From: a virus
Direction: 5' to 3' (one strand)
Length of the DNA stretch: 64,000 bases
IMG/VR virus record: IMGVR_UViG_3300042446_001168
The notes under the pieces are model-generated. The model was not told where the DNA came from. It did no database searches and saw only the letters and a list, made by a program, of their open reading frames with translations. Within the stretch, counting starts at the first letter, position 1. Each line of letters starts with the position of its first letter. The translations under genes and the position numbers were made by a program. Shown one piece after another: positions 25,886 to 28,712 of the stretch.

Positions 25886-26185
25886 ATGGCCAAAATATCT
25901 ATTGAACTAGATGAGGATAATGATTTTGGATTCTCTGCTGTCAGTGAAGATGACCTCAAATCAATGGAGCGGCAGCTTCAACAACAAGTTCATGAAAAAG
26001 AACAAGAATTATCGTTGACTTCTAAAGAGTATAAAGATAAACTAGAGGCTCTTTATAAGTTGATCATGCCACTACTACTCAACCTAGCCAAGGATTCTGA
26101 AAAAGAGTATATACTCTGGCCTGACCGATCTAAGAAGATGAAAATTTTTATTGATAAAGTAAATAAGTTAGTAGAAAATGATTAA
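25886..26185 (+). CDS. Hypothetical protein
   Basis: DFGFS...PLL.NL....YI.WP.R pattern typical of T4-like phages. Confidence 0.7.
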   Translation: MAKISIELDEDNDFGFSAVSEDDLKSMERQLQQQVHEKEQELSLTSKEYKDKLEALYKLIMPLLLNLAKDSEKEYILWPDRSKKMKIFIDKVNKLVEND

Positions 26186-27074
26186 CTACCTGGCATTGTT
26201 GGTTGCTATTGGATTGTCTGGAGTATCGGCCTACTTCTCAATCCTTGGACTGACAGCTATCTTTGCAGCATCATTCTGGCCTGTAGTTATTATGGGTTCA
26301 ATGCTTGAAGCAGCTAAGGTTGTTGCTGCGTCTTGGGCCTTTCGGAACTGGTCATATGCACCGGCCAGTATTCGCTACTACCTTGTTTCTGCCGTTATTA
26401 CTTTAATGTTTATAACATCAATGGGTACGTTTGGTTACCTGTCCAAAGCACATATTGAGCAGTCAGCATCGGTTGGTGATGCTGCCGCTCAGGTTGCTGT
26501 TTACGATGATAGAATCAAAGTTATAAACGACACCATCAATGCCAATCGTACACTCCTTAAACAGTTTGATGAAGCTGTTGACCAGGTGATGTCTCGTTCA
26601 ACAGACTCTAAGGGAGCTGAGCGAGCTCTTCAGATTAGAAAATCACAGCAGAAAGATCGTAGTCGGATCATGGAGGAAATATCAGCACTGCAGAAAGAAG
26701 TTAGCAAGCTCAATGTTGAGAAGTCTCCACTGGTATCGCAAGTTAGAAAAGTCGAGGCAGAAGTTGGTCCAATCAAATATATTGCCGAGCTTTTTGTTGA
26801 TAAGGCTGATGATTCGTTTCTGGAAAAGACTGTTCGTTGGGTTATTATTATGATTGTAACAGTATTTGATCCGTTAGCTATTCTTTTGCTGATAGCAGCT
26901 AATATGGGATTGATGCGGCAGAGTCAAGATCGTAAGACATCCTCCCTGGCACAGGATATTACTAACAGCGAAGAGGAGTCAGAAAAGAGATTCAAGAAGC
27001 TACAAGAGTTGACTGGAAAGGCGAACCGTAGTAAAGTGACTATTGATAAGAACAAAATAAGGAAGATGACATGA
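26178..27074 (+). CDS. Membrane coiled-coil protein
   Basis: N-terminal TM helices, ITSMG.FGYLSKAH, EVGPIKYIA, VFDPLA. Confidence 0.75.
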   Translation: MINYLALLVAIGLSGVSAYFSILGLTAIFAASFWPVVIMGSMLEAAKVVAASWAFRNWSYAPASIRYYLVSAVITLMFITSMGTFGYLSKAHIEQSASVGDAAAQVAVYDDRIKVINDTINANRTLLKQFDEAVDQVMSRSTDSKGAERALQIRKSQQKDRSRIMEEISALQKEVSKLNVEKSPLVSQVRKVEAEVGPIKYIAELFVDKADDSFLEKTVRWVIIMIVTVFDPLAILLLIAANMGLMRQSQDRKTSSLAQDITNSEEESEKRFKKLQELTGKANRSKVTIDKNKIRKMT

Positions 27075-27973
27075 GTTTTTTAAAGGGTTTATTAAAGGAG
27101 TTAAATGATGAAAACACTTATCTGGCCAGTGACGGCGGTGGTAGTGCTGAGTTTGGTGGGTTTATTGATACTGGCAGCTATATTCTCAACGCTCTTCTCT
27201 CTGGTAGCATCTTTGGTGGCGTATCTGATAACAAGATTACTGCTTTTGCAGGAGAGTCCGCTGTTGGAAAGAGTTTCTTCGTACTTGGTATCGTTAGAGC
27301 CTTCCTTGACAAGAACCCAACAGCAATCGTCGTCTACTACGACACCGAAGCAGCAGTAACTAAGAAGATGATGTCGGAACGTGGTATTGATGTTGAGCGA
27401 GTAATTATTGCTGAGCCAGATACCATTCAAAAGTTCAAGACTCATGCACTTAAACTGATAGAGGCGTATGAAAAGACTTCGGAGAGCGAACGTCCTAAGA
27501 TGATGTTTGTTCTTGACAGCCTTGGTATGTTGTCAACATCCAAAGAAATGGAAGATTCTCTGGATGGCAAAGATACAAGAGACATGACCAAGTCTCAAGT
27601 AATTAAAGCAGCGTTCAGAGTGTTGACTCTCAAGCTAGCAAAGGTTAAAGTACCTATGCTAGTCACCAATCACGTTTACGAGGTTGTTGGATGTCTTGAT
27701 GCTAGTCAATGGATCAGGCTAGAAGATGGTACTCATAAAAACATTGTAGATATTGACATTGGAGATGTGGTTACTACACTAGATGGCCCAAAGCCAGTTA
27801 CAGAGACTTTTGAGTATACAGTTGATGAATATGTTGAGCTAACTTTTGAGGATGGTAGTGTGATTAAAGCTACTCCTAATCACAAGTTCTTAATCGACGG
27901 GGTTTGGGTTGCAGCTGAGGATATCGTCCTCAATGATGAGGTCGTATCCATAGGCACGTGCGAACTCGTCTAG
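27071..27973 (+). CDS. uvsX: UvsX/RecA recombinase N-terminal half (207 aa) fused to split intein N-fragment (93 aa)
   Basis: GESAVGKS Walker A, YYDTE, LDSLG, NHVYEVVG, then intein CLDAS...TPNHKF, then stop. Confidence 0.93.
   Translation: MSFLKGLLKELNDENTYLASDGGGSAEFGGFIDTGSYILNALLSGSIFGGVSDNKITAFAGESAVGKSFFVLGIVRAFLDKNPTAIVVYYDTEAAVTKKMMSERGIDVERVIIAEPDTIQKFKTHALKLIEAYEKTSESERPKMMFVLDSLGMLSTSKEMEDSLDGKDTRDMTKSQVIKAAFRVLTLKLAKVKVPMLVTNHVYEVVGCLDASQWIRLEDGTHKNIVDIDIGDVVTTLDGPKPVTETFEYTVDEYVELTFEDGSVIKATPNHKFLIDGVWVAAEDIVLNDEVVSIGTCELV
27692..27973 (+). mobile_element. Split intein N-fragment
   Basis: Cys1 block A (CLDASQWI), block B TxxH (ATPNHKF), acidic composition. Confidence 0.9.
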
Positions 27974-28123
27974 TACTCGCGCATCAACTTGGAGATGTCT
28001 TGCAGCCTCGGCAATTGAGAAGTAGTGTCTATTATTAATAATCACAATATTTTTCATGGTTATAGTATTGGCGTTCTCAGAGGATTTGATCTTCTTGAGC
28101 TTAGTAGTTTTTGACGTATCCAC
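27890..28123 (-). CDS. Small antisense NUMOD1-like DNA-binding protein (homing-endonuclease remnant)
   Basis: IINNRHYFSIAEAARHL NUMOD1-type motif; late promoter upstream on - strand. Confidence 0.55.
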   Translation of the reverse strand: MDTSKTTKLKKIKSSENANTITMKNIVIINNRHYFSIAEAARHLQVDARVLDEFARAYGYDLIIEDDILSCNPNPVD

Positions 28124-28152
28124 AATGATTCCGTTTTAATTTACACACGCAT

Positions 28153-28160
28153 TATTTATA
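28153..28160 (-). promoter_or_regulatory. T4-type late promoter on the minus strand
   Basis: + strand TATTTATA = TATAAATA on - strand, 30 nt upstream of the antisense ORF. Confidence 0.6.
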
Positions 28161-28175
28161 AGAGCAGGAGTTACA

Positions 28176-28283
28176 ATGAAGGTAATATCGAAGAGGGTGG
28201 TCTCTGACCAACTAAAGGTATATGATTTTACGGTAGAGGATTCACATCACTACGTATTAGAAAATGGAGTTGTTTCGCATAAT
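28176..28283 (+). mobile_element. Split intein C-fragment
   Basis: Block F VYDFTV, block G SHN followed by Ser+1. Confidence 0.9.
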
Positions 28284-28712
28284 TCATATGTACCTACTAA
28301 GGAGATATCAGGTGGTTCGGGACTTAAATTTGCTGCCAGTACTATTGCAATGCTCTCAAAGAAGAAAGAAAAGGATGGCGATGGAGATGTTATCGGCAAC
28401 CAAATTAAAATCAAGATGTACAAGTCACGACTCTCAAAAGAGAACCAAGATGCAACAGTGCTACTTACTTATAGCAAAGGTCTAGATCGATACTTTGGAT
28501 TGTTGGATCTAGCAGAGAAGTACGAAATTATTAAGAAAGTATCTACGCGGTATGAATTACCAAACGGTAAGAAGGTATTTGGTAAGGAGATAAACACCAA
28601 CCCTGAATTATACTTTACAGAAGATATTCTCCAACAGTTAGAGATATGTGCAAAGAAGGAGTTCAGTTATGGAGTTAGTGAAGAAGTATCGAGTGATATT
28701 CCAGAGGAATAA
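28176..28712 (+). CDS. uvsX: Split intein C-fragment (36 aa) fused to UvsX C-terminal half (142 aa)
   Basis: AGGAG RBS; KVYDFTV..SHHY..NGVVSHN then [19 protein letters not shown]...KSRLSKE. Confidence 0.93.

Follow-up and report, generated by a model that had tools for sequence, protein, structure and literature searches.

A naturally split intein predicted to divide the uvsX recombinase gene of a T4-like phage into two genes

In a stretch of 64,000 nucleotides (nt) of viral DNA (IMG/VR virus record IMGVR_UViG_3300042446_001168; the whole stretch is called the window below), the recombinase UvsX is encoded not by one gene but by two, each of which joins a part of UvsX to what appears to be half of an intein. 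UvsX is needed in phage T4 for recombination-dependent replication and repair. The locus raises the question of how a phage with a divided uvsX obtains the enzyme. We consider it highly likely that uvsX is a fractured gene here and that its two polypeptides would be joined by trans-splicing into a UvsX of 349 amino acids (aa).

Results

Two genes encode the parts of one UvsX

The first open reading frame (ORF; 27071 to 27973, plus strand) encodes 300 aa. Its first 207 residues (N-extein, 27071 to 27691) carry the Walker A motif GESAVGKS and the ATPase core of UvsX and end with ...TNHVYEVVG (Gly207) at the start of the L2 loop. The next codon (27692 to 27694) specifies the Cys that begins an N-intein of 93 aa (27692 to 27973, including the stop codon TAG at 27971 to 27973). 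A spacer of 202 nt follows (27974 to 28175). The second ORF (28176 to 28712, plus strand) encodes 178 aa and begins 5 nt downstream of an AGGAG ribosome-binding site read from the sequence (28166 to 28170, plus strand). In it, a C-intein of 36 aa (28176 to 28283), with a basic N-terminal stretch, block F and the block G sequence VVSHN, precedes a C-extein of 142 aa (28284 to 28712, including the stop), which comprises Ser+1, the remainder of the L2 loop and the C-terminal domain. The exteins sum to 207 + 142 = 349 aa. With 20 acidic residues against 5 basic ones, the N-intein has a net charge of −15; over the first 15 positions of the C-intein the net charge is +3. Relative to the N half, the C half is shifted to frame +1, and all three plus-strand frames of the spacer contain stop codons.

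The first-pass annotation of this DNA, made from the letters alone, had described the same anatomy: 207 aa of UvsX followed by an acidic 93-aa N-intein with Cys1 at 27692, TPNH and a stop, then a gap of 202 nt, an AGGAG site, a 36-aa C-intein with a basic start, Ser+1 and 142 aa of UvsX. All coordinates of both halves were confirmed from the ORF list and the raw sequence. Its further claim, that the joined exteins give a seamless UvsX of 349 aa, is borne out by the following comparisons.

The UvsX-like PHROG profile phrog_97 matches the N half over profile positions 21–227 (E 1.6e-59) and the C half over positions 228–329 (E 2e-18), the two together covering 21–329 contiguously. Against PDB 9gbg, a solved phage UvsX, the N half aligns with residues 1–208 (E 2.7e-70), Ser208 being placed under the intein Cys, and the C half with residues 207–333 (E 2.1e-44), starting at N36/S37, with Ser208 under Ser+1. 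As aligned, one extein part ends where the other begins, with nothing missing or duplicated; once joined they cover 9gbg from 1 to 333, and the ATPase core, the L1/L2 region and the C-terminal domain are all complete. Pfam RecA also matches the N half (1.1e-9). The predicted ligation junction reads ...VVG-SYVP... (junction peptide ...VYEVVGSYVPTK), and at this junction the sequences of three intein-less IMG/VR relatives (L019, L027 and L028) are identical to the predicted ligation product.

This break falls within the L2 DNA-binding loop. In the numbering of a hidden Markov model (HMM), G207 of UvsX corresponds approximately to G200 of Escherichia coli RecA, and the GG of SGG to G211–G212. A tblastn search of 50,697 phage records with the C half matched 1263 records. 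No intein at the window's uvsX site was found in cultured phages, the best 40 of the 1263 matches all beginning at query residue 36 or 37, past the intein.

A predicted class-1 intein broken at the canonical position

All motifs of a class-1 intein are present, namely Cys1, block B TxxH (TPNH), block F D...HH, the terminal HN and Ser+1. Cys1 comes directly after Gly207. Each of the 12 N halves in alignment A1 has it, and T268, P269 and H271 of block B are invariant among them as well. Likewise, all 22 C halves in alignment A2 share D17, H24, H35, N36 and S37 (Ser+1), the catalytic residues of this half being unchanged though the exteins have diverged to 46% identity. Pfam Hint/Intein_splicing falls on residues 204–292 of the N half; positions 21–93 of the Intein_splicing profile are found in the N half and positions 122–155 in the C half, while the first 20 and the middle positions are uncovered.

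The 36-aa C-intein chain of Npu DnaE (4lx3_B) can be aligned with the entire C-intein, and the best structure matches of the N-intein are the DnaE and Mtu RecA mini-inteins. Together these alignments point to a break at the canonical split position. Each intein half is in frame with its own extein in a separate ORF, the C half having its own AGGAG and ATG, and HMMs of both halves detected one N half and one C half only in the 64-kilobase (kb) window. These features support the presence of a naturally split class-1 intein that would divide uvsX into two genes.

The same two polypeptides might instead dock without forming a peptide bond, so that UvsX would be a non-covalent two-piece enzyme, or its halves would have separate roles. 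Such docking is compatible with the sequence, and the charge complementarity of the intein halves fits it as well as it fits splicing. We nevertheless consider it improbable, because the residues that serve the splicing chemistry only (Cys1, the block B His, the block F Asp/His, the penultimate His, the terminal Asn and Ser+1) are invariant at about 46–58% extein identity, and because an intein of about 129 aa retained in the L2 loop would, judging from structural knowledge of RecA, probably obstruct the contact between filament and DNA.

The spacer contains the remains of an antisense homing-endonuclease cassette

On the minus strand an ORF of 77 aa (27890 to 28123) overlaps the 3' end of the N-intein by 84 nt. 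Alone, its product (YFSIAEAARHL...) gave no significant Pfam or PHROG match. BLASTP aligned it, at 41% identity (E 3e-10), over the C-terminal 59 aa with a protein of 228 aa encoded in the corresponding position of the IMG/VR contig L001; this protein matches Pfam HNH (7e-5). L001 and the metagenome contig L002 both have the full antisense ORF (228 and 230 aa, respectively) with an equal overlap of 84 nt. In a three-way DNA alignment of the window, L001 and L002 (A3), about 450 nt, the HNH domain included, are missing from the interior of the window's cassette; the window retains the 5' flank of the cassette, with a minus-strand TATAAATA box, and the 3' portion of about 230 nt. The 77-aa ORF is thus the C-terminal, DNA-binding stump of an HNH homing endonuclease without its nuclease domain, and the spacer is what is left of the cassette, a point absent from the first-pass annotation's description of the uvsX halves.

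With a degenerate pattern of the C-intein junction, 12 more contigs were picked up in IMG/VR, and both junctions were recovered in 11 contigs, L001 included. Ten of these 11 carry an antisense HNH gene of 207–228 aa that overlaps the end of the N-intein by about 48–84 nt; counting L002, such a gene (207–230 aa) stands between the halves at 11 loci. The remaining contig, L173, has a spacer of 78 nt and a 46-aa stump (L173:4349-4489), the sequence of which is that of the C-terminus of the 212-aa endonuclease in its close relative L175, where the gene is full. We therefore take the order N half, antisense HNH gene, C half to be the layout of the family, with the nuclease lost at least twice, in the window and independently in L173. 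As the nuclease domain is gone, the element can probably no longer home, which would amount to a loss of mobility in the window's lineage.

Upstream of the stump, the TATAAATA box (28153 to 28160, minus strand) matches the consensus of T4 late promoters and stands back to back with the ribosome-binding site of the C half. The exact box is limited to the window, L001 and L002, where it occupies the same place, and other lineages have similar A/T-rich boxes; this putative promoter is therefore taken as a lead only. Six near-identical variants of the 77-aa ORF, from at least 10 contigs, are too alike for selection on it to be judged. It is conceivable, albeit unlikely, that the antisense cassette has been kept for a purpose after the nuclease was lost. 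The late-promoter-like TATAAATA box and the helix-turn-helix stump could switch off production of UvsX-N late, as an antisense or DNA-binding regulator, or they could supply an 'immunity' protein that sits on the homing site and keeps related endonucleases away. In combination with the split intein, this would place assembly of the recombinase under temporal control instead of leaving it merely parasitised.

The split gene belongs to a conserved family

A search for the same insertion site, which the first-pass annotation had proposed as a check, returned relatives of both halves with a common break point. Relatives of the N half, from a search limited to the junction and the N-intein, form 18 clusters (295–307 aa, intein identity 54–100%); those of the C half, from a search with the C-intein, form 36 clusters (164–192 aa). 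N halves of 300 aa at 96–99% identity come from NCBI, JGI, ENA and Logan assemblies. A contiguous form, expected at about 478 aa for uvsX plus a mini-intein, was not found among proteins of 165–525 aa, which is a weak negative, and proteins of 526–2000 aa yielded nothing relevant by way of a contiguous intein-bearing UvsX.

Non-synonymous and synonymous divergence (dN/dS) was estimated by the method of Nei and Gojobori. Between the window and L001 the N-intein gave the rough values 0.353/1.42, or 0.28/2.0 outside the antisense overlap, and between L001 and L002 it gave 0.104/0.414; for the extein the estimate was 0.155/1.18 (about 0.13). With ratios of about 0.14–0.25, the intein is under purifying selection within a conserved family.

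These estimates bear on the possibility that uvsX is dead and decaying, the intein and the endonuclease being relics, and that recombination depends on the host or on a different gene. Decay is clear in the endonuclease that separates the halves, and another recombinase could be encoded in the part of the roughly 154-kb genome that extends beyond the 64-kb window. Set against this are full-length open frames in both halves, with start codon and ribosome-binding site, the retention of all RecA/UvsX motifs, the low dN/dS (about 0.13 in the extein and about 0.15–0.25 in the intein) and the maintenance of the two-ORF state in dozens of diverged lineages, so that a dead gene is very improbable. An artefact of assembly or sequencing, whether a chimeric contig or a uvsX ORF that in reality runs uninterrupted through the intein, is extremely unlikely, since the halves do not share a reading frame and every frame of the spacer has stops, no fewer than 14 independent contigs have this break point together with an antisense endonuclease gene, and the identical 300-aa and 178-aa proteins occur on 3 and 14 contigs, respectively.

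Some points nevertheless weigh against a trans-spliced UvsX. Each half's Pfam intein match is individually below the gathering score, as is expected of half a domain. Synonymous sites are close to saturated in the comparison of the window with L001, which makes the ratios for this pair rough. With regard to a second recombinase and to other intein halves, the view is that of the 64-kb window. Lastly, the case for splicing is one argued from sequence.

A second split-intein site in uvsX

A second break in uvsX (site b) was found 12 residues downstream of the window's site. There the intein begins with Cys after ...GG and ends with THN, followed by Ser or Thr and then Gly, the junctions being ...TGG/C...THN/TGV or ...ISGG/C...THN/SGLKY. 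Site b is occupied in the IMG/VR contigs L004–L007 and in cultured T4-like phages, namely Escherichia phage HY03 (L044), Shewanella phage Thanatos-1 (L045), Yersinia TG1, Proteus Pm5461, Salmonella SEA1 and others. Both sites are in the L2-loop region of uvsX and both carry a split intein with Cys1, the N-inteins of the two being 33–38% identical; the residue at +1 is Ser or Thr in site b. They differ in the endonuclease, which in site b is GIY-YIG/Seg-like (GIY-YIG/NUMOD3) and encoded on the same strand, in contrast to the antisense HNH gene of the window's family. GenBank labels the site-b halves as two 'recombination protein' genes, one half in HY03 being called a 'hypothetical protein', and in the HY03 and Thanatos-1 records no intein is mentioned for either half.

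In one of the site-b contigs (L006:5539-8040; IMG/VR UViG_3300001842_000316) the gp41 helicase gene beside uvsX is also fractured, in its P-loop, so that two adjacent replication genes of one phage are both intein-split. The gp41 N half ends ...VVLAG, followed by CVHPDTKIRVRIRK and a stop, so that its N-intein spans only about 14 aa; the C-intein carried by the C half is about 135 aa long and ends SSHN/TGVGKS. Between them is an ORF of 263 aa with an HNH-like motif (HKHRIIP...N...H) and no Pfam match. This gp41 resembles the atypically split 'T4-like helicase' type, of which VidaL may be an example.

Surroundings of uvsX in the window

No terminator-like site was found on the plus strand between the uvsX halves, which makes their co-transcription plausible. 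A sigma-70-like sequence within the spacer (TTGAGA-16-AATAAT, 10 of 12 positions matching; 28015 to 28042, plus strand) could drive a separate transcript of the C half. Upstream, the gene for a predicted membrane/coiled-coil protein of 298 aa (26178 to 27074, plus strand) overlaps the start of uvsX by 4 nt (ATGA). Its counterpart in L001, of 260 aa, is likewise located upstream of uvsX.

Discussion

How the divided gene may yield UvsX

The canonical motifs, the split site, the conserved family and the purifying selection all favour a naturally split intein, as the first-pass annotation had proposed. According to our model, a mini-intein occupies the L2 DNA-binding loop between Gly207 and Ser208 and was broken, at the canonical point of endonuclease insertion, by the free-standing gene of an HNH homing endonuclease, which is encoded antisense. 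The locus would now give two products, UvsX(1–207)-N-intein of 300 aa and C-intein-UvsX(208–349) of 178 aa, the latter made from a separate AGGAG/ATG. Association of the acidic N-intein with the basic N-terminal stretch of the C-intein would produce a single folded HINT domain. Splicing would then follow the class-1 pathway, with an N-S acyl shift at Cys1, attack by Ser+1, cyclisation of Asn36 and an O-N shift, to release the excised intein pair and a 349-aa UvsX with the native sequence ...VVG-SYVP.... In this lineage the endonuclease gene has subsequently lost about 450 nt including the HNH domain. The split element may persist because only a precise deletion would restore uvsX. Since the break lies in the L2 DNA-binding loop, the unspliced halves are expected to be inactive or poor in filament function, and recombinase activity would then require splicing.

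Relation to known inteins

Fractured genes with split inteins were described from ocean metagenomes by Dassa, London, Stoddard, Schueler-Furman and Pietrokovski (2009; PMC2677866), who reported gp41-1 to gp41-9, NrdA, NrdJ, IMPDH, DnaE, ligase and terminase. UvsX is not one of the eight host enzymes of that study, where it appears only as a neighbour of gp41. The window's uvsX is like those genes in being a phage gene of DNA metabolism that is contained in two ORFs, with a split mini-intein, Cys1/Ser+1 and a T4-like marine or freshwater phage as its host, and the uvsX family is also like them in having a free-standing endonuclease cassette between the halves. In their loci the three ORFs are on one strand and the endonucleases are GIY-YIG or Vsr-like (PMC2677866). 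This one-strand layout is not found in the window's uvsX family, whose endonuclease is of the HNH type, antisense, and overlaps the 3' end of the N-intein by 48–84 nt. We regard the antisense cassette as an architectural variant of the fractured gene and not as a difference in principle. Absence of the endonuclease has a precedent too, since the gp41-7 locus lacks one and was still counted as a fractured gene (PMC2677866); the window is likewise without endonuclease, and here a nuclease-less remnant of 77 aa is left. The similarity of the window's intein to gp41-1 is marginal (E 0.15).

A contiguous intein occurs in the L2 loop of bacterial RecA (KIGVMFG/C...VHN/SPETTTGG), with more than 120 genomes among the matches listed, M. 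intermedium included (L046–L125). Its sizes of 168–365 aa indicate both mini and endonuclease-bearing forms, and its hosts are mostly Actinomycetota, with Armatimonadota, Chloroflexota, Gemmatimonadota and metagenome-assembled genomes of Clostridia in addition. We take its position in Actinomycetota to be the 'RecA-b' site of Mycobacterium leprae. Like the window's intein it is of class 1, has Cys1/Ser+1 after a Gly and is located in the L2 loop of a RecA-family recombinase; unlike it, it is contiguous and bacterial, and the UvsX site is about 4 residues upstream of the RecA site, G204/N205 in the HMM numbering. Because the alignment of the loop is ambiguous, the two sites are not equated.

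The DnaE inteins of Npu and Ssp share with the window's intein the split position, the fragment sizes (about 100 + 36 aa) and the pairing of an acidic N with a basic C fragment. They differ in that the DnaE halves are encoded at distant loci of cyanobacterial chromosomes and have Cys+1, and the sequence relation is weak (E 1e-4 to 1e-2). The atypically split metagenomic inteins (AceL/GOS TerL, VidaL) have N fragments of 16–30 aa, in contrast to the canonical 93 + 36 aa of the window.

The first-pass annotation was aware of no characterised UvsX case. This much stands, as no description of a UvsX split intein, or of any UvsX intein, was found in the searchable literature. The case is not an isolated one, however, given dozens of metagenomic relatives and the second site in cultured T4-like phages. 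Entries named 'VidaL UvsX-1/-2' are said to have been listed by Thiel and colleagues in 2014 and by Bachmann and Mootz in 2015 (the Mootz and Pietrokovski groups). If so, UvsX had already been named as a host of naturally split inteins in phage-like metagenomic DNA, although those inteins would be of the atypical kind with a short N fragment. The supplements to a paper on a split-intein library (PMC7090010) do not mention UvsX, RecA or VidaL.

What the divided uvsX means

The fractured uvsX of this phage is a fresh case of a known class of fractured genes, and it changes no principle, because the mechanism and the gene layout were already known. It has three modest twists: the antisense, overlapping HNH cassette, the decay of this cassette in the lineage of the window, and a loop with two insertion sites close to each other. 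The diverged, canonically split Cys1/Ser+1 pairs of the family are candidates for screening as orthogonal tools for protein ligation, and the 93 + 36 aa pair of the window might conceivably splice fast and be orthogonal to both gp41-1 and Npu DnaE.

With two nearby sites and two endonuclease families, uvsX would join the short list of phage replication genes that split inteins have colonised. The family presents stages of the homing cycle side by side, from the empty site through the full cassette to two independently decayed cassettes, and these bear on how split inteins originate and become trapped. If our reading is correct, the central recombinase of this phage depends on a post-translational ligation within its DNA-binding loop.

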